From assembly GCA_919902995.1 (NCBI GenBank), contig CAKKSD010000050.1, forward strand, positions 14,499-78,498: DNA of 64,000 nucleotides, given 5' to 3'. Source of the stretch: Thermodesulfovibrionia bacterium (lineage in GTDB: Bacteria > Nitrospirota > Thermodesulfovibrionia > JACRGW01). The notes below the pieces were generated by a model, which worked only from the letters and a program-made list of their open reading frames with translations, was not told the origin of the DNA and made no database searches. Position numbers and translations under genes: made by a program. This document shows, piece by piece, positions 4,325 through 63,996 of the stretch. How positions within the stretch are numbered: the stretch's first letter is position 1; every line of letters starts with the position of its first letter.

Positions 4325-4385
4325 TGTCACCCTGAACTTGTTTCAGGGCAAGGTTCAGAACGACATTTTCAAGGTTCAGCATGAC
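4325..4385. repeat. Hairpin-repeat cluster (CTGAAC subfamily) between methyltransferase and lnt
   Basis: GTCACCCTGAActtgtTTCAGGG, then two GTTCAG(A/C)A(C/T)GAC half units. The last unit is the reverse complement of the GTCATGCTGAAC unit at 6049. Confidence 0.5.
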
Positions 4386-6048: not shown

Positions 6049-6105
6049 GTCATGCTGAACTCGTTTCAGCATCTACTTGAGATTCTGAAATAAATTCAGA
6101 ATGAC
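6049..6105. repeat. Hairpin-repeat cluster downstream of lnt
   Basis: GTC-ATGCTGAA-ctcgt-TTCAGCAT-CT and G-ATTCTGAA-ataaa-TTCAGAAT-GAC, both perfect 8-bp stems. Confidence 0.55.
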
Positions 6106-6131: not shown

Positions 6132-7230
6132 ATGTTAGACGAAGAATCGAGAGAGATAGAAGAACTCGAAACAAGGCTCAATACCCTCAGGGGGTATCTT
6201 TGAAATAGAAAAGAAAGAAAGCAGAATAAAGGAGATAGAGAAGATGATGGAAGCCCAGGATTTCTGGGAGAATGTTCCTTCTGCCCACGCCCTTCTGAAA
6301 GAGAAGTCCACACTTGAAGTGTCAATCAATAATTTCTATTACCTTCAGGGAAGGCTTGAAGACCTTGAGATAATGATCGAGCTTTCAGAGGAAGAAGAAG
6401 ATACATTTATATCAGAAATAGAAAAGGGTCTTAAAGAATTAAACAGTGAATTCCAGAAGATCGAAATAGAAACAATGTTAAGCGGTGAGAAGGACAGTCA
6501 TAATGCCATCGTCTCGATCCATCCCGGGGCTGGTGGTACAGAATCTCAGGACTGGGCACAGATGCTCATGCGCATGTACCTCAGGTGGGCAGACAGTCAT
6601 AATTTCAAGACTGAAATCATTGATATTCTTCCCGGAGAAGAGGCGGGTATTAAGAGTGTCACTATTATGGTCGCAGGTGAATATGCCTATGGTTACTTGA
6701 AGGCAGAGGCAGGGATCCATCGCCTCGTAAGGATTTCTCCTTTCGATGCAAGCAAACGCAGACATACATCGTTCGCTTCAGTATTTGTTCATCCTGAGAT
6801 AGAAGAAGACATAGAAATTGACATAAAGGATGATGATTTAAGGATCGAGACCTTCAGGGCAAGTGGTGCAGGCGGTCAGCATGTGAATAAGACATCTTCT
6901 GCAGTAAGGATAACCCATATTCCTACAGGGGTTGTTGTTCAGTGCCAGAACGAAAGGTCACAGCATAAGAACAAGGCGACCGCCATGAAGGTATTGCGGT
7001 CAAAACTCTATGAACTCAAGGAGGAAGAGCAGGCTAAGAAGATGGAAGAGATTTTAAGCGAGAAAAAGGAGATCGCCTGGGGAAGCCAGATACGCTCCTA
7101 TATCCTCCAGCCCTACCAGATGGTCAAAGACCACAGGACAAACCTCGAGGTCGGAAATGTAAACGCTGTCCTCGACGGAGACATAGACCAGTTCATTGAT
7201 GCCTATCTGTTACAGGAAGTCACCAAGTAA
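6132..7230 (+). CDS. prfB: Peptide chain release factor 2 with programmed +1 ribosomal frameshift (frame 0 6132-6200, shift at CTT TGA 6198-6203, +1 frame 6202-7230)
   Basis: The frame-0 ORF MLDEESREIEELETRLNTLRGYL ends at an in-frame TGA at 6201-6203. It is preceded by AGGGGG (6189-6194), a Shine-Dalgarno-like element, and then TAT CTT TGA. The +1 frame continues into the RF2 body with SPFDASKRRHTSFASVFVHPE and the GGQ motif RASGAGGQHVN. This is the canonical prfB autoregulatory site. Confidence 0.85.
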
Positions 7231-9826: not shown

Positions 9827-9977
9827 GTCATTCCTGCGGAAGCAGGAATCCAGAATAATGTCATTCCGCACTTGATGCGGAATCCAGTTCCTTAATAAGT
9901 AATAGATTCTCTATTATACGGAGACTTCACCTGTAAGCAAAGGAAGGCCACTGGATTCCCACTTTCGTGGGAATGAC
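9827..9977. repeat. Hairpin-repeat cluster (type cluster): three units GTCATTCC-stem-loop-GGAATCCAG, two forward and one inverted
   Basis: Unit 9827-9853 is GTCATTCCTGCGGAAGCAGGAATCCAG. Unit 9860-9887 is GTCATTCCGCACTTGATGCGGAATCCAG. Unit 9951-9977 is CTGGATTCCCACTTTCGTGGGAATGAC. Confidence 0.7.
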
Positions 9978-10573: not shown

Positions 10574-10676
10574 GTCATTGCGAGGAGTTCCGATTTATCG
10601 GAACGACGAAGCAATCTCAAAGCGTTACGAGTTACGACTTAAGAAAGAGATTGCTTCGCCTTCGGCTCGCAATGAC
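10574..10676. repeat. Nested inverted-repeat element (about 103 bp, MITE-like or structured RNA) with terminal IR GTCATTGCGAG/CTCGCAATGAC
   Basis: The outer IR is 10574-10584 against 10666-10676. The inner IR GAAGCAATCTC/GAGATTGCTTC is 10608-10618 against 10647-10657. Internal hairpins are GTTCCGATttatCGGAAC and GCCTTCGGC, with a tandem GTTACGA GTTACGA. Confidence 0.6.
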
Positions 10677-10694: not shown

Positions 10695-11993
10695 ATGAAA
10701 TTCAGTCCCTTCATACTACTCTGTACCACTGGCCTCTTCGCCATATTCAGTTCCACTATCTCAAAGAGTCCTGTATTGCCATTGTTTGCCTCTCATCTTG
10801 GAGCTGAGCCTTCTGGTGTTGGAATCATCGCCTCTACATCAGCATTCACAGGTATCATTGCAAGCATACCTGCGGGCATACTCTCTGATAGATTCGGAAG
10901 AAAAAGGATGCTGATCCTTTCTGCTGTAGTATTTGCGACTGCCCCCTTCCTTTATCTTTTAGTCACAGAGATTTGGCAACTCGTATTGATCAGGTTCTAT
11001 CACGGCCTTTCAACAGCCATATTCATTCCTGTCTCAATGGCCCTGGTATCAGATCTCTTTCATAAAGAGCGAGGAGAAAAAATAGGATGGTTTTCAACAT
11101 CGACACTCGTTGGAAGGTTTATCGCTCCTGTTGCAGGAGGCAGCATCATCGGCCTGCTAACTTTTAATCCAGATATGAGTTATAAGGTTGTTTATATTGT
11201 ATGCGGGATTGCAGGTGTAATCACCTTACTGCTAACACTGAGGATACCTGCTTTTGGAGATACTGCAACTACAAATCGTCATTCCCACGAAAGTGGGAAT
11301 CCAGACGCCGTCCCTGCGAAAGCAGGGAACTATAAAGATCTGGATTCCTGCTTCCGCAGGAACGACACAGAAATACTAAAACAGTCATCTCAGTCTTGGA
11401 AAGAGACTTTAAAGGCATTCAAGTCAGTAATATCAAATAGGGCTATTCTTATTACCGCTATTGTTGAGGCATCTATACTCTTTGCCTACGGGACATTTGA
11501 AACCTTTCTCCCCCTCTATGTAATAAATATAGGTCTTAGTGCATATGAAATCGGAATATTCCTCTCAGCACAGGTAATTACACTTGCAGTAACAAAACCG
11601 ATTATGGGAAGATTCTCTGACAGACATGGAAGAGGTCCGCAGATATTTGCGGGTGCCATAATCGGAGCAGTCTGCATCGGAAGCTTTTCTCTTTTCAGAT
11701 CTTTTATACCCCTTCTTGCCTTGAGTGTATTATTCGGTCTGAGCCTATCTGTTGTAACATCAGCCACATCTGCCTTTATCGCTGACCTCAGCAGACGTGA
11801 GACCCATGGTTCTGCAATGGGGATTTTGGGATCGATAATGGACATAGGCCATACAGCAGGCCCTCTTGTTTCTGGGATAGTGGCTACCTATTTAGGTTTC
11901 GGCAAGGCATTTATAGTGGCGTCGTTAATCCTTGTAGCAGTAGCCTGCATATTCTTAGCAAAAACCTCTCAACCCAAAAATTTCCTTATGTGA
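10695..11993 (+). CDS. MFS transporter
   Basis: 432 aa with 12 predicted TMs. An MFS loop 2-3 motif (SDRFGRKRM) is present, and a second copy (GRFSDRHGRG) follows TM8. Confidence 0.8.
   Translation: MKFSPFILLCTTGLFAIFSSTISKSPVLPLFASHLGAEPSGVGIIASTSAFTGIIASIPAGILSDRFGRKRMLILSAVVFATAPFLYLLVTEIWQLVLIRFYHGLSTAIFIPVSMALVSDLFHKERGEKIGWFSTSTLVGRFIAPVAGGSIIGLLTFNPDMSYKVVYIVCGIAGVITLLLTLRIPAFGDTATTNRHSHESGNPDAVPAKAGNYKDLDSCFRRNDTEILKQSSQSWKETLKAFKSVISNRAILITAIVEASILFAYGTFETFLPLYVINIGLSAYEIGIFLSAQVITLAVTKPIMGRFSDRHGRGPQIFAGAIIGAVCIGSFSLFRSFIPLLALSVLFGLSLSVVTSATSAFIADLSRRETHGSAMGILGSIMDIGHTAGPLVSGIVATYLGFGKAFIVASLILVAVACIFLAKTSQPKNFLM
11280..11368. repeat. Hairpin-repeat cluster embedded in frame inside the MFS transporter central loop
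   Basis: GTCATTCCCACGAAAGTGGGAATCCAG at 11280-11306, GTCCCTGCGAAAGCAGGGAAC at 11312-11332 and CTGGATTCCTGCTTCCGCAGGAACGAC at 11342-11368. Together they encode ...RHSHESGNPDAVPAKAGNYKDLDSCFRRND... without a stop. Confidence 0.65.
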
Positions 11994-13429
11994 GCTGCCT
12001 CTACAAGCATGCTCGGTATATTAGCATTGTCCTTTTCCTTAAAAGCCTTGATAATCCTTGACGTAATAGAATTATGTTCAAGGTTTACATTGTAATTACA
12101 CCAATCCAGTTTAAGGGATTTTTTAACCTCATCAGGCAGTATTGTGAGCACATCCTCATTGAAAAATGACATTGCTGTTTTCATATCGAACATAAAATTA
12201 ACATGCATGTCTTTCATGCAACTAATATCTTCAGAATTGAGCACATTCAAACCGAGAATTTCCGGGGGAAGTCCTATGGAATAACATGAGGCACAGAAGC
12301 TTATAACTCGAGGTAGCCTTACCTTTCCTACACTCCTTGCATATCCGAAAAGGCCAACATGAAGTTTACGCATTCTCCTTTTTGGCACAAAGCTGGCTAT
12401 ATGATTGATGATTGGGGCGAGATGCTCTATCATTCTTTTATATTCAACGGATACCTTATCTATAATCTCAATACATTTACCTTCATCCAGTTCCTGTCCT
12501 CTCTTCATAGGTGAGGTCTTTAACTTATTAATAGCAGCAATTACATCAGGAACAGGGTTATCATACTTAAATGCTGATTGCGCAGTGAATGTCTGGACAT
12601 CAGGATATTCTTCCAATACATTAGCAATAGTATAGGGAGAAAGATGTCCTCTGAAAGGTGCCGTACCAGCGCCAAGTATCGGATATATATTAACCCCTGT
12701 TTCTTCAGAAAGTCTTCTTAAACGTCGCAGTGCAATTTTGTTGCAAAGAATAGCGCTTACCATTCCATAGTTCATAGCAGGATCTGACCTTGCTAAAAAT
12801 ACCCTCTGGTGTTTTATATCTTTGTCTTTAAGATATTCTCCCATAATATTATGCGCCTCAAGCATATGCACCTTATCTTCAAAAAGTGGTATCACATTTA
12901 TTGATTCAGGTTTACACTCACCTATCCATTCAGATATGGTAATATCGCCTTGATAAAATGGTTGGTTTTGTTTTCCTACAACAAAGTCCTTGTAATAGTA
13001 GTAAACCCTGTTCAGACTTTGGTGGGACATCGTCATAGGAAGAATGACCTCAAAGATAGGTGGAACTTCCTTTCCATAAAAAAGTCTTGCGGCATCACAG
13101 GAACGGGGAATACTTTCAAGGGTCTCTATTAGAACCTTCGCTTCTTCTTTTTCTATATCAGGATTTGGAACCCTCACCGTAAGAAATACATCTTCTCCGA
13201 GTTTTGTATTCTTAAAATAATGTTCATATTTAGTTAGAAGCTTTCGTACCACAAAAGCATCGACCTCTTTACCTTCAGAGTCCCACATCTGTTCATCACA
13301 TCCAAGATGGGAAAAGGCATAATACGCTTCCTGAACCTCATCATCTCCTGACATGTCAGGACTTTCTGCAAAAAATGGTAAAAGGACATTGTCAGGGTGT
13401 TGGGTTGACATTACCCTCGGTATCTTCAT
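11969..13429 (-). CDS. ppcA: Archaeal-type phosphoenolpyruvate carboxylase (PpcA)
   Basis: 486 aa. The N-terminus MKIPRVMSTQHPDN is the hallmark of atPEPC, and the length and overall profile fit that family. Confidence 0.75.
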   Translation of the reverse strand: MKIPRVMSTQHPDNVLLPFFAESPDMSGDDEVQEAYYAFSHLGCDEQMWDSEGKEVDAFVVRKLLTKYEHYFKNTKLGEDVFLTVRVPNPDIEKEEAKVLIETLESIPRSCDAARLFYGKEVPPIFEVILPMTMSHQSLNRVYYYYKDFVVGKQNQPFYQGDITISEWIGECKPESINVIPLFEDKVHMLEAHNIMGEYLKDKDIKHQRVFLARSDPAMNYGMVSAILCNKIALRRLRRLSEETGVNIYPILGAGTAPFRGHLSPYTIANVLEEYPDVQTFTAQSAFKYDNPVPDVIAAINKLKTSPMKRGQELDEGKCIEIIDKVSVEYKRMIEHLAPIINHIASFVPKRRMRKLHVGLFGYARSVGKVRLPRVISFCASCYSIGLPPEILGLNVLNSEDISCMKDMHVNFMFDMKTAMSFFNEDVLTILPDEVKKSLKLDWCNYNVNLEHNSITSRIIKAFKEKDNANIPSMLVEAAHIRKFLG

Positions 13430-16512: not shown

Positions 16513-16659
16513 ATGTTCTACTTTTATGCAATTTGGTCAGCAATCCTTAATTCTTACAGAAAATGCCCTATATGCAGAAGGATTCAACACTTTAAAGGCA
16601 AAAAGAAGGGAGATAGTGTCAGATGTAAAAAATGCGGCTATCAGTTTGTGCTGAAATAA
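16513..16659 (+). CDS. Candidate small zinc-ribbon protein (48 aa, CxxC...CxxC)
   Basis: The ORF MFYFYAIWSAILNSYRKCPICRRIQHFKGKKKGDSVRCKKCGYQFVLK is followed by an intrinsic terminator. It is below the ORF-track length cutoff. Confidence 0.3.
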   Translation: MFYFYAIWSAILNSYRKCPICRRIQHFKGKKKGDSVRCKKCGYQFVLK

Positions 16660-16689
16660 CTTACTCTTCACCTTTCATTAAATTTATAT

Positions 16690-16726
16690 GCCCCGCTGCT
16701 TTCAGCGGGTGGGAAACCTTTTTTTA
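16690..16726 (+). terminator. Rho-independent terminator-like hairpin plus T7 run
   Basis: CCCGCTG-ctttc-CAGCGGG followed by tgggaaaccTTTTTTT. Confidence 0.45.
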
Positions 16727-16731
16727 GTTTT

Positions 16732-16824
16732 GTCATTCCCGTGAAACTTGTCCTCGACTGCGATCGGGGAACGGGAATCCAGAGACATACAAAATACTGG
16801 ATTCCGCATCAAGTGCGGAATGAC
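16732..16824. repeat. Hairpin-repeat cluster: a long unit (51 bp) plus an inverted unit identical to the reverse complement of unit 9860-9887
   Basis: GTCATTCCCGT...ACGGGAATCCAG spans 16732-16782. CTGGATTCCGCATCAAGTGCGGAATGAC spans 16797-16824 and is the exact reverse complement of 9860-9887. Confidence 0.7.
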
Positions 16825-16924
16825 GACGGTGTTTGTTTTTTAGTTCATGATACCCCACTGCTTGCTGCGAGGAGGTTCATTGTAAATCGTAATAATACAT
16901 AGTTCTATGCTGAATGGGATCTCT

Positions 16925-24308: not shown

Positions 24309-24617
24309 ATGGACGTGGTAAAATCAATTAACGGTGTACCGGTGAGGCTGACCGATGAAAGGTGGATTCATATTATCGAAAACCATGATGATTTAGCCGG
24401 TTATTATGACGAAGTTCTCGGTACCATTGAATCTCCAGATTATGTTATTAAGGGCTATGAACACGCACTGATAGCATTGAAAAAATCAGAGGGAAACAGG
24501 TTTCTCGCCGTAGTTTATAAGGAGATTGGTAAAAAAGACGGTTTTATTATAACCGCATATTTCACAAGTAAAATAAAACTTGAAAGAGAGGTGATTGTAT
24601 GGCAACGACAGGCATAG
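24309..24617 (+). CDS. Putative toxin of DUF4258-like family (partner of DUF2283)
   Basis: 102 aa with 19-nt overlap onto the downstream DUF2283 gene. The family assignment is tentative. Confidence 0.4.
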   Translation: MDVVKSINGVPVRLTDERWIHIIENHDDLAGYYDEVLGTIESPDYVIKGYEHALIALKKSEGNRFLAVVYKEIGKKDGFIITAYFTSKIKLEREVIVWQRQA

Positions 24618-36091: not shown

Positions 36092-36129
36092 ATTCTTGAT
36101 AAGATTCAGAAAGAATGTTATAGTTCACT

Positions 36130-36294
36130 GACAGGCGAGACGCCTGTCCTACTGATGCTAAAACAATCACCCATATTTGGGTAGGACGGCCGTCTCGGCT
36201 GTCTGTTTTTCTGTCATTCCCACGGAAGTGGGCATCCAGAGAATAAATATTTGCTGGAGCTTAATAACTGGATTCCTGCCTTCGCAGGAATGAC
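36130..36294. repeat. Composite hairpin/repeat cluster between atpE and gltX
   Basis: GACAGGCG-aga-CGCCTGTC at 36130-36148. GTCCTAC...GTAGGAC at 36146-36187. GACGGCCGtctCGGCTGTC followed by TGTTTTTCT. Family units GTCATTCCCACGGAAGTGGGCATCCAG at 36213-36239 and CTGGATTCCTGCCTTCGCAGGAATGAC at 36268-36294. Confidence 0.6.
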
Positions 36295-36334
36295 GATATT
36301 ACTAAAGTCATTTGAAATAAATTAGAATGGTTTC

Positions 36335-37853: not shown

Positions 37854-38051
37854 ATGGCGACTAATCTGGCATTGGACGACAAATTAATTATTCAGGCACA
37901 AAAGGCAGGACACCATAAGACTAAAAAGGAAGCTGTAACTACGGCGTTAAAGGAGTATATTGCACACAGAAAACAGATAGAGATTCTTGACCTGTTTGGC
38001 AAGATTGAATTTGATAAAACCTATGATTACAAAAAATCAAGGAAAAGATGA
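37854..38051 (+). CDS. vapB: Type II antitoxin VapB-like (DUF2191-like)
   Basis: 66 aa starting MATNLALDDKLIIQAQKAGHHKTKKEAVTTALKEYI, with AAGGAGGTG 4 nt upstream. It overlaps vapC by 4 nt. Confidence 0.65.
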   Translation: MATNLALDDKLIIQAQKAGHHKTKKEAVTTALKEYIAHRKQIEILDLFGKIEFDKTYDYKKSRKR

Positions 38052-38443
38052 AAATTCTTGTAGATACCTGTATCTGGTCTCAGGTGCTTCGGTATAAATC
38101 TCCTGATCCAGAATTACCATGTAAATTAAAGGATTTTATCACGGATGGTAGAGTAGTTATGATAGGCCCAATTCGTCAGGAAATACTATCCGGGATATCC
38201 GATACCTCTCAATTCAATAAATTAAAAGATTTTCTCTCAGCATTTGAAGATGTTGGTCTTAAAACTAAACATTTTATAAAAGCTGCGGAATTCAGTAACA
38301 TATGCCGTAATAAAGGTATCCAGGGATCAACGATAGATTTCTTAATATGTGCAGTTTCACATTTAGAAAATCTTATTATCTTTACAACTGATAAAGATTT
38401 TGAAAATTATAAAAGGTATTTACCCATAAAAGTAATTAAATAA
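38048..38443 (+). CDS. vapC: PIN-domain toxin VapC
   Basis: 131 aa with the N-terminal acidic residue in ILVDTCIW and a C-terminal D in TTDKDF, as in PIN folds. Confidence 0.75.
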   Translation: MKILVDTCIWSQVLRYKSPDPELPCKLKDFITDGRVVMIGPIRQEILSGISDTSQFNKLKDFLSAFEDVGLKTKHFIKAAEFSNICRNKGIQGSTIDFLICAVSHLENLIIFTTDKDFENYKRYLPIKVIK

Positions 38444-56300: not shown

Positions 56301-56375
56301 GTCATTCTGAGTGTAAGACTAAGAATCTCATTTAGGGAATCTGCCCCTGAATCTGACTCAGGTGCAGGATAATAT
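56301..56375. repeat. Degenerate hairpin-repeat cluster between envC-like and ctpA
   Basis: GTC-ATTCT-gagtgtaagacta-AGAAT-CTCA and CCTGA-atctgac-TCAGG; these are imperfect family members. Confidence 0.35.
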
Positions 56376-63352: not shown

Positions 63353-63751
63353 TTAATGTGTTTCCAAAAAACGCTGCGGTGTTACTATATTGATTCCCAT
63401 ATATTCCTTTATAACAAGGATCTTCTTATCACCTGTTATAACAGCATCCGCTTTTAATGCCACAGCACATTCAATAAACTTATCATCATCAGGGTCTTTT
63501 TTTACAATACTTATCTTTGGTGTTTTTGTGGTAAACAGGAGGTTAAAGCCCCTTGAGAATAGAGCTAACAACTCTTCAAGCTCATGCTCGTCTTTCAGAC
63601 CGATTCTGCAAAGGACATCCACATATTCTTCAAGAATTGCCTTTGACAGGCAGAGGGTTATTTTTTCTTTCTTCCACAGATCAATAATTTTTCTCGGATT
63701 TCCGCCAAAAAAAGATGAAACAAAGATATTCGTATCAATGACAACCTTCAT
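63353..63751 (-). CDS. PIN-domain toxin-like protein (TIGR00305-type)
   Basis: 132 aa with an N-terminal VVIDTNIF acidic motif and C-terminal ITGDKK. It overlaps the upstream RHH gene by 4 nt. Confidence 0.7.
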   Translation of the reverse strand: MKVVIDTNIFVSSFFGGNPRKIIDLWKKEKITLCLSKAILEEYVDVLCRIGLKDEHELEELLALFSRGFNLLFTTKTPKISIVKKDPDDDKFIECAVALKADAVITGDKKILVIKEYMGINIVTPQRFLETH

Positions 63752-63996
63752 CCCTGTTTAATGCGAGATGCCTTTATAGCCTTTTCTATCCCTGCAGGAG
63801 TTACGCCTTTTGATTTAAGCTTTTTCCCTGTTCTATTCCATAGGTCATCAATGTATGCTCCGATATCGCGTTCATTAATACGTTCTTCTATTATCTCCCT
63901 GACCATTTCGCTTGTTGTTTTACCTTCAAGTCTCGCAAGTCTATTGAGCCTGTTTTTGACCTCTTCATCTATCCTTATAATCATCTGTGTCGTCAT
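63748..63996 (-). CDS. Ribbon-helix-helix (CopG-like) putative antitoxin
   Basis: 82 aa. The N-terminus MIIRIDEEVKNRLNRLARLEGKTTSEMVREII fits the RHH beta-alpha-alpha pattern. Confidence 0.55.
   Translation of the reverse strand: MTTQMIIRIDEEVKNRLNRLARLEGKTTSEMVREIIEERINERDIGAYIDDLWNRTGKKLKSKGVTPAGIEKAIKASRIKQG

Follow-up and report, generated by a model that had tools for sequence, protein, structure and literature searches.

What are the short hairpin repeats that lie scattered through a 64,000-nt stretch of a Thermodesulfovibrionia (Nitrospirota) contig (CAKKSD010000050.1, positions 14,499 to 78,498; hereafter the window), and what could spread them? A first-pass annotation, made from the letters alone, had described them as a dispersed family resembling repetitive extragenic palindromes (REPs) or bacterial interspersed mosaic elements (BIMEs) but with its own consensus. 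The likeness to REP/BIME was borne out by our analysis. The separate consensus was not, because the tag, outer stem and tail were those of published CGTC-tagged REPs and of the Neisseria dRS3/NTS repeats (PMC3733652, PMC11893778). The units are probably CGTC-tagged REPs of the dRS3/NTS type whose partner is an Ssn-family nuclease encoded elsewhere, and their dimers would be gene-less derivatives of a unit-ssn-unit arrangement.

Di Nocera, De Gregorio & Rocco (2013) split bacterial REPs into a GTAG-tagged and a CGTC-tagged superfamily (PMC3733652). In the CGTC superfamily the tag is often TGTC, the stem of 8-9 bp opens with A-T and T-A, the loop has 4 nt in family 1 and 5 nt in families 2-4, and the tail is mostly CCA (PMC3733652). 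Most of these REPs stand in inverted pairs, tags outside ('HH'); CGTC-2 often forms heterodimers, and intragenic units occur. No associated transposase was found for them, and genes of REP-associated tyrosine transposases (RAYTs) were never flanked by CGTC units in that survey (PMC3733652). The CGTC-1 family in Neisseria is dRS3 (PMC3733652). Chenal et al. (2025) extended dRS3 to the 28-nt Neisseria Transformation Sequence (NTS), CGTCATTCCCGCGMAVGCGGGAATCYRG. Its partner SsnA, a 94-aa GIY-YIG protein, binds and cuts the NTS only as single-stranded DNA (ssDNA) and only on the tagged strand; cleavage needs 3 nt upstream of the palindrome, and binding hinges most on the C right after it (PMC11893778). 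Homologues of ssn across phyla are flanked by 'Ssn-related motifs' (SRMs) (PMC11893778).

We found 18 hairpin units in eight clusters of the window: 10 of A-type, six of B-type (two of them partial) and two of C-type. In all of them an unpaired YGTC tag preceded a stem of about 8 bp that opened with A-T and T-A and enclosed a loop of 4-5 nt, and a C stood right behind the palindrome. The A-type was GTC-ATTCC...GGAAT-CCAG, the B-type GTC-AT[GT]CTGAA-loop-TTCAG[CA]AT-CT and the C-type GTC-ATTGC-GA...GA-(A)GCAAT-CTC. A strict pattern, GTCATTCC-N(11-12)-GGAATCCAG, matched the window six times (9827+, 9860+, 9951-, 11278+, 16797-, 36268-). A covariance model, with which every window position was scored, recovered the 10 A-type units (9827+, 9860+, 9951-, 11278+, 11310+, 11340-, 16732+, 16797-, 36213+, 36268-), and nothing else in the window scored convincingly. 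MAFFT alignment of 15 units set the 4-nt-loop and 5-nt-loop units out of register. For this reason only nine 4-nt-loop units went into the model, which under-scored the B and C types. The units and the composite built around one pair of them were as follows, with the supporting evidence in brackets.

4326..4353, plus strand: B-type unit GTC-ACCCTGAA-CTTGT-TTCAGGG (fold).
4349..4385, minus strand: two partial B-type units (GTCGTTCTGAACCTTG and GTCATGCTGAACCTTGAAAAT) facing 4326 (sequence comparison).
6049..6076, plus strand: B-type unit GTC-ATGCTGAA-CTCGT-TTCAGCAT-CTAC (fold z -5.0).
6078..6105, minus strand: B-type unit GTC-ATTCTGAA-TTTAT-TTCAGAAT-CTCA, forming a tags-out dimer with 6049, from which a single nucleotide separates it (fold).
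9827..9853, plus strand: A-type unit GTC-ATTCCTGC-GGAA-GCAGGAAT-CCAG, 8-bp stem and 4-nt loop, CGTC-1-like (50.8 bits; DNA fold -7.8 kcal/mol, z -5.9).
9860..9887, plus strand: A-type unit with a 5-nt CTTGA loop, CGTC-2-like, GTCATTCCGCACTTGATGCGGAATCCAG (strict pattern, model, fold).
9951..9977, minus strand: A-type unit with a CAC-GAAA-GTG core, closing the tags-out cluster of 9827 and 9860 (strict pattern, model, fold).
10574..10618, plus strand: C-type unit GTC-ATTGC-GA-..-GA-(A)GCAAT-CTC with a long inner hairpin (fold, comparison with Thermodesulfovibrio).
10647..10676, minus strand: C-type unit GTCATTGCGAGCCGAAGGCGAAGCAATCTC (comparison with Thermodesulfovibrio; weak fold, z -1.5).
11278..11304, plus strand: A-type unit within a major facilitator superfamily (MFS) transporter gene, in frame (..RHSHESGNPD..) (strict pattern, model).
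11310..11330, plus strand: shortened variant GTC-CCTGC-GAAA-GCAGG-GAAC within the MFS gene (..VPAKAGN..) (model E 0.0036; fold z -6.9).
11340..11366, minus strand: A-type unit with the tag variant GTCG within the MFS gene (..LDSCFRRND..), a tags-out pair with 11278 (48 bits).
16732..16782, plus strand: A-type unit whose loop holds a 28-nt insertion that itself forms a hairpin (model, fold).
16797..16824, minus strand: repeats the CTTGA 28-mer exactly and pairs tags-out with 16732 as a heterodimer, with 14 nt between the two (strict pattern).
16686..16882, minus strand: composite mosaic of about 190 bp, made of hairpin X (..ATGAAC-CCTCGCAGCAAGCAGTGGGG-TATCA), the CGTC dimer and hairpin X' (CCCGCTGAAAGCAGCGGG) (sequence comparison).
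36213..36239, plus strand: A-type unit with one stem mismatch (GGGCAT) (45.8 bits; fold).
36268..36294, minus strand: A-type unit, a tags-out dimer with 36213 (strict pattern, model).
56301..56330, plus strand: degenerate unit GTCATTCTGAG..AAGAATCTCA, head and tail matching the ssn-flanking units of Thermodesulfovibrio (weak fold, z -0.7).

All eight clusters of the first-pass annotation were thus real as hairpin repeats, and one unit reported there as an exact copy was confirmed: 16797-16824 is the exact reverse complement of 9860-9887. Three points had to be revised. Of the cluster 56301-56375, only the part 56301-56330 could be assigned to a unit. The stretch 36130-36212 belonged to a different, GTAG-tagged pair, and the CGTC units there were those at 36213-36239 and 36268-36294. 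The single consensus ATTC...GAAT-CCAG proposed for all clusters described the A-type units, whereas clusters 4325, 6049, 10574 and 56301 were related sub-types without it.

Every structural feature that defines the CGTC superfamily was present in these units, and we therefore filed them as CGTC-tagged REPs of the dRS3/NTS type. GTC was invariant in all full units and unpaired in every fold. At position -1, T (77%) or C (19%) was present in 96% of 233 units. The A and B units had 8-bp stems starting with AT; in the C units an internal loop separated a 5-bp outer stem from an inner one. The loops were GGAA, GAAA, GAAG or CTTGA, CTCGT, TTTAT, CTTGT, with the long loops of 16732 and 10574 as exceptions. 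CAG followed GGAATC in 220 of 252 units, which gave the tail CCAG; the B and C units carried CTC or CTA. The tags-outside inverted arrangement was present in seven of the eight window clusters (4326 / 4349-4385; 6049 / 6078; 9827 + 9860 / 9951; 10574 / 10647; 11278 (+ 11310) / 11340; 16732 / 16797; 36213 / 36268). The head, outer stem and tail were identical to those of the Neisseria NTS. The positions on which SsnA depends were also conserved: in a 15-unit alignment (A, B and units from the related loci L010, L011 and L016) GTC was invariant and the C after the palindrome was at least 90% conserved, and the C-type units, which lay outside this alignment, carried both. The units are probable, not proven, Ssn substrates.

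The idea that these units are chance hairpins or the product of a local duplication was refuted. No strict-pattern match was expected (0.00 in 100 dinucleotide-preserving shuffles) against the six exact matches observed, and the 18 units spanned 52 kb of the 64-kb window. Identical units were found in other Nitrospirota species, and the exact 28-mer GTCATTCCGCACTTGATGCGGAATCCAG was present on at least 120 unrelated metagenome contigs. The family was therefore dispersed, as had been proposed. Among the matches listed, these contigs had a GC content of 0.30-0.60, and the contigs listed carried 276 matches in 706 kb. An inverted unit lay downstream of the 28-mer at 70 of 110 non-redundant sites among the matches listed, typically 9-17 nt off, and upstream at only six. 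The downstream partner was usually a tetraloop unit, which made the pair a heterodimer.

We then considered at which level the hairpins were conserved. All full units folded alike as single strands: the first three nucleotides (GTC) stayed unpaired, the stem began at the A, and the tail was unpaired as well. The best units gave fold z values of -4.4 to -6.9, and the seven best were unmatched by any of 200 shuffles; the folds of 56301 (z -0.7) and 10647 (z -1.5) were weak. The claim that compensatory changes preserve stem pairing held. Four different inner stems occurred among the window units (TGC/GCA, GCA/TGC, CAC/GTG, CGT/ACG), each of them Watson-Crick. The 252 A-type units on 120 metagenome contigs comprised 45 distinct cores in a regex-based count, and 35 of the 45 kept at least three inner pairs, against 1.7% of random cores. 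The covariance-model check that had been suggested also showed covariation. In 123 distinct model-aligned units, 99.1% of cells were paired (16-56% in slid controls), and changes on both sides of a pair occurred in 69 cells against 12.5 ± 2.8 in shuffles, a value reached by 0 of 500 shuffles. This alignment was fitted to the model and hence biased towards structure; the regex-based count was free of that bias. Across the model-aligned units, pair 1 was A-U in 118 of 123 sequences and pair 2 was U-A in 122 of 123. The stems covaried around each of two recurring loop classes, GNRA-like or GNNG tetraloops (GAAA, GGAA, GAAG, GCAA...) and the pentaloop CTTGA. The core GCGAAAGC, which is common in the family, is a classic extraordinarily stable DNA mini-hairpin.

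The first-pass annotation had also placed the clusters mostly at gene 3' ends beside T-runs and suggested a terminator role. A primary role in RNA, in which the units would serve the genes upstream as intrinsic terminators, stabilise their 3' ends or mark processing sites, should be weighed here. Fifteen of the 18 units (seven of the eight clusters) were intergenic although only 8.8% of the window was non-coding, a bias with p ~3e-7 per cluster (our binomial estimate; window 91% coding). Five clusters lay between tandem genes and one between convergent genes, the unit flanks were T-rich, one unit scored as terminator-like, and transcription of many REPs has been argued for by Di Nocera et al. 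(PMC3733652). However, one cluster lay between divergent genes and one was intragenic, and a stem followed by a T-run was present in only one of the 18 units. A terminator scan of 13.5 kb gave eight terminator-like sites where shuffles gave 10.2, so there was no enrichment. Because the units form inverted pairs, both orientations enter any transcript and orientation relative to transcripts carried no signal. G-U pairs were rare (7 of 962 cells in the 123 model-aligned units), which points to constraint on DNA or on both strands, and SsnA showed no interaction with RNA (PMC11893778). At Rfam gathering thresholds, tRNA-Asp alone was found in the window and RNase P alone in 19 repeat-bearing contigs; the units and the conserved hairpins that flank them thus belong to no curated RNA family. 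A terminator role was not supported by the anatomy, and we regard a primary role at the RNA level as unlikely. Since G-U pairs were almost unused and the units lay in both orientations, the constraint on pairing fits DNA rather than a transcript.

Mobilisation by a RAYT, a Y1 HUH transposase, had been named as another possibility, and the units do have the general look of a REP: the hairpins are tagged, the dimers are inverted, and they cluster between genes. A genuine REP dimer of the RAYT-associated type was also present in the window, beside two CGTC units.

36124-36209: GTAG-tagged REP pair with an 8-bp stem GACAGGCG/CGCCTGTC and a 3-nt loop, inverted, tags inside, 28-nt spacer (one long hairpin, -25.1 kcal/mol, z -7.7).

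This pair was the only one of its kind in the window. Its position beside the CGTC units meant that both REP superfamilies coexist in the source genome, which may also have a RAYT. The units themselves carried YGTC and not GTAG, which was confined to this separate pair. Pfam matches among the 42 scanned open reading frames (ORFs) of the window belonged to housekeeping, toxin-antitoxin and other unrelated families, with no transposase (Y1 type included), integrase or RAYT. The 2013 survey likewise disfavours such a partner, as RAYT genes were never flanked by CGTC units (PMC3733652), and the gene flanked by such units in relatives was a GIY-YIG gene. That the units are REP or REPIN elements mobilised by a RAYT encoded elsewhere is therefore very improbable.

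The partner that the relatives pointed to was Ssn. A protein search with an approximate family consensus as query gave about 8000 hits, single-domain PF01541 proteins with a length of roughly 95 aa, including entries named 'GIY-YIG nuclease family protein [Thermodesulfovibrio]'. Thermodesulfovibrio species thus have GIY-YIG proteins of the Ssn family, 96-98 aa long. The ssn gene there lay amid dense units within ±800 bp, at least 13 at one locus (L213) and at least six at another (L210), of the form tGTC-AYYCY-GAG..GA-RRRAT-ctc. The window unit 10647-10676 was the same as L213 4671-4696, beside the Thermodesulfovibrio ssn, except for two compensatory stem pairs. Among the IMG/VR loci listed, four had both A-type units and an ssn homologue. 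Tagged units beside ssn were confirmed at three high-GC loci (L215, L259 and L319), where A-type units flanked ssn tags-out in the geometry of the gene-less dimers; at the fourth, L303, there was no tagged unit within 500 bp of the homologue. A different single-domain GIY-YIG ORF lay 171 bp from the exact 28-mer on an AT-rich contig (L154); it resembled the Ssn queries weakly and therefore gave weaker support.

Based on these results, a mechanism is proposed. Each unit is a DNA hairpin that the unpaired 5' YGTC tag and the C directly 3' of the palindrome make asymmetric. Most units stand as tags-outside inverted dimers, which can sit in larger mosaics. The tagged strand would fold when the DNA becomes single-stranded during replication, repair or uptake of incoming DNA. 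A single-domain GIY-YIG nuclease of about 95 aa, an Ssn that the source genome would encode elsewhere, would recognise this fold, act on the units and nick them immediately 5' of the tag. Probably the dimers derive from a unit-ssn-unit cassette and lack its gene. With Ssn as mediator, they would spread and turn over as selfish REPIN-like DNA where they are tolerated, namely in intergenic spacers and in one cytoplasmic loop of a protein.

Several results weighed against the Ssn partnership. Neither the 64-kb window nor the adjoining 9.6 kb on its left contained a GIY-YIG/ssn gene. No GIY-YIG gene was found when the window and 88 related loci were searched by motif and by tblastn, a short contig from Hainich (L004) yielded no ssn, and the Ssn homologue lists held no entry attributable to the source metagenome-assembled genome (MAG). 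Among the 120 metagenome contigs listed with the 28-mer there was one GIY-YIG gene, not a clear Ssn-family member; a ratio of one ssn to hundreds of units would allow this, but it is not positive evidence. None of the 18 units matched the NTS (at most one mismatch) or the SRM search string of Chenal et al. (PMC11893778). The SRM string, HGTCWYN(0-2)YYVSBRHN(0-5)WNVSBRGN(0-2)RNCYNB, does match the canonical NTS, and its two matches in the window were both unrelated coding sequence. The best units, 11277-11304 and 36268-36295, were at two mismatches from the NTS each, which in both corresponded to one compensatory stem pair. The published strings missed the units because they fix inner-stem letters; tag and tail fit. 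Finally, Ssn is a nuclease with no known strand-transfer activity, and the mechanism of spread is therefore speculative.

Comparison between species showed how the clusters turn over. Identical units were common to the related species of L010, L016 and L214, and most other relatives had none. L214, reached through the MFS homologue, was a syntenic locus (MFS 78% identical). Unit 9951..9977 was kept 27/27 at the orthologous L214 site upstream of the HD gene although the surroundings had diverged; all other window units were replaced there by different repeats in the orthologous spacers. The kefB-atpD spacer measured 38 bp in L214 against 456 bp in the window. Because one unit was kept and the others differed, clusters are gained and lost on the time-scale of speciation. 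The 456-bp spacer also held a small ORF (window 16517-16662) that is unannotated and encodes about 48 aa, among them two CxxC pairs (..KCPICRR..CKKCGY..); this ORF may have come in with the repeat mosaic. The composite of about 190 bp around 16732/16797 recurred with sharp boundaries in unrelated metagenome contexts; on one contig (L117) two copies were 152/152 identical and 1306 bp apart.

Whether the tags-out CGTC heterodimers and the 190-bp composites are non-autonomous mobile elements, copied by the Ssn GIY-YIG ssDNA nuclease or homing through it, is a more tentative proposal, which we hold to be possible but somewhat doubtful. The geometry shared by unit-ssn-unit and dimer, the gain and loss at species level and the in-frame insertions are compatible with Ssn-driven mobility. 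Since the same 28-mer was found on contigs of such different GC content, an Ssn-driven system would have to move between phyla. If true, the system would resemble REPINs but depend on a class of nuclease that is not known to drive transposons in prokaryotes. An idea of this kind, resembling an insertion sequence, was already raised by Chenal et al. (PMC11893778).

The repeats could instead be landing sites for other mobile elements, as dRS3 is for Neisseria Nf prophages with their IS110-like recombinase, or hotspots of homologous recombination. dRS3 is a known target of a phage recombinase (PMC11893778), and the unit-bearing spacers differed greatly between species. At least five different conserved sequences, e.g. 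AACTTGTAATTCCCCGTGGTCTTGCCACGGGGTTACC.., AGTAGTCTGTCAAGTTCGATTAGGTAGGTT and ..CCCCGCAGCAAGCTGCGGGGTATCAA.., adjoined the 5' tag of the 28-mer in unrelated contigs (L089-L208; window 16826-16885). They matched no Rfam family and may represent termini of other small mobile elements or additional modules of the mosaics. A-type units were also common in the IMG/VR viral/prophage collection, on at least 120 contigs (L215-L334), some loci with 5-12 copies. In the window, however, no integrase, transposase or prophage adjoined any cluster. Such a role would also be a consequence of the repeats and leaves their origin, covariation and dimer geometry unexplained. It is plausible as a side effect; as the explanation of the family it is improbable.

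Three of the units lay inside a protein-coding gene. The MFS transporter gene (window 10695-11993) carried an insert at 11278-11366 in which three in-frame CGTC units added about 36 residues to the central cytoplasmic loop. In MFS homologues of 389-470 aa the same loop was a hotspot for other hairpin-repeat inserts, which translated to PPL/F-x-KGG-like peptides, and the shortest homologues had no loop insert.

The window was otherwise ordinary core chromosome (clpB, lnt, prfB, dnaE, polA, groEL, aminoacyl-tRNA synthetases, ATPase subunits), with a probable mur/fts-type block that was unannotated. Its proteins had identical copies in assemblies from Hainich groundwater (well H51), and in a comparison of strain-level polymorphism three loci (L001, L002, L209) were near-identical to the window at the clusters. 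Some other genes deserve mention. The prfB gene (6132-7230) had a canonical programmed +1 frameshift site, AGGGGG TAT CTT TGA, at 6198, and its short upstream ORF ended ..LRGYL*. A lone 102-aa ORF (24309-24617) in a 1-kb gap after dnaE weakly resembled PBECR2, a nuclease of barnase/EndoU/RelE-like type. Toxin-antitoxin pairs with a PIN domain (one VapBC-like, one RHH-PIN) lay at 38048-38443 and 63353-63996. An archaeal-type phosphoenolpyruvate carboxylase (PEPC; PEPcase_2) was encoded at 11969-13429 of this bacterium. It had at most 86% identity to Nitrospirota/Thermodesulfovibrionales MAGs in GTDB, which makes the host an uncultured, Thermodesulfovibrionales-like member of the Nitrospirota of a species absent from the representatives. 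Close homologues were spread across Nitrospirota, Thermodesulfobacteriota and archaea. At the 22 closest of 80 GTDB PEPC loci (L009-L030), tblastn found no neighbour gene of the window beside PEPC except one mntP-like match (L019).

The repeat family is already known from the work of 2013 (PMC3733652) and 2025 (PMC11893778) and is cross-phylum. New are the phylum of the host, the finding that the published search string fails on these variants, and a few details of architecture. The pairing of CGTC REPs or NTS with Ssn was extended to uncultured groundwater Thermodesulfovibrionales (Nitrospirota). The published SRM string was too narrow, as it missed all 18 units although tag, tail and geometry were conserved. 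The repeats also account for some assembly behaviour, as the short contig L004 ended within the unit at 6049, and for odd peptides of the 'VIPAKAGIQ / HSHESGNP' type in predicted proteins. The strict tags-out heterodimer (a CTTGA-loop unit and a unit with a GNRA-like loop, 9-17 nt apart) and the identical geometry around ssn bear on how the repeats spread; these two details leave knowledge of the family unchanged.

Finally, we compared the repeats with known systems. Like REP/BIME and REPIN-RAYT elements, they are tagged hairpins whose inverted dimers are the likely replicating unit, with few or single copies of a partner gene flanked by repeats and with build-up in intergenic regions. In the REPIN-RAYT system, however, the tag is GTAG instead of YGTC and the partner is an HUH Y1 transposase instead of a GIY-YIG nuclease, and transposition chemistry is established for RAYT relatives, not for Ssn. 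With Neisseria dRS3/NTS and the NIME mosaics they share the head, outer stem and tail (CGTCATTCC...GGAATCCAG), an orientation set by the tag and clustering in mosaics (PMC11893778). The conserved positions coincide with the binding and cleavage determinants of SsnA, and ssn homologues in related genomes are flanked by units as in Neisseria; the inner stems differ from the NTS, and no ssn was seen in the window. They resemble CGTC-1 and CGTC-2 in build: an unpaired C/T-GTC tag, an 8-bp stem starting with AT, a loop of 4 or 5 nt and a short C-rich tail, together with prevailing tags-outside dimers, heterodimers, coexisting sub-types, occasional intragenic units and no RAYT nearby (PMC3733652). 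Differences were the host phylum (Nitrospirota, Thermodesulfovibrionales), which is not among the reported hosts (PMC3733652), the CT(C/A) tails of the B and C units, the GA-rich internal loops of the C units, the long loop insertions of some units and the embedding in a composite that measures about 190 bp and has additional hairpins. Of the Rickettsia palindromic elements (RPEs), Di Nocera et al. assigned RPE-6 to CGTC-1 and RPE-4 to CGTC-4 (PMC3733652). The three units in the central loop of the MFS protein resemble RPEs as in-frame palindromic inserts that leave the ORF intact. RPEs as first described are longer elements of about 100-150 bp, whereas the block inserted in the MFS gene consists of three units of 21-27 nt.

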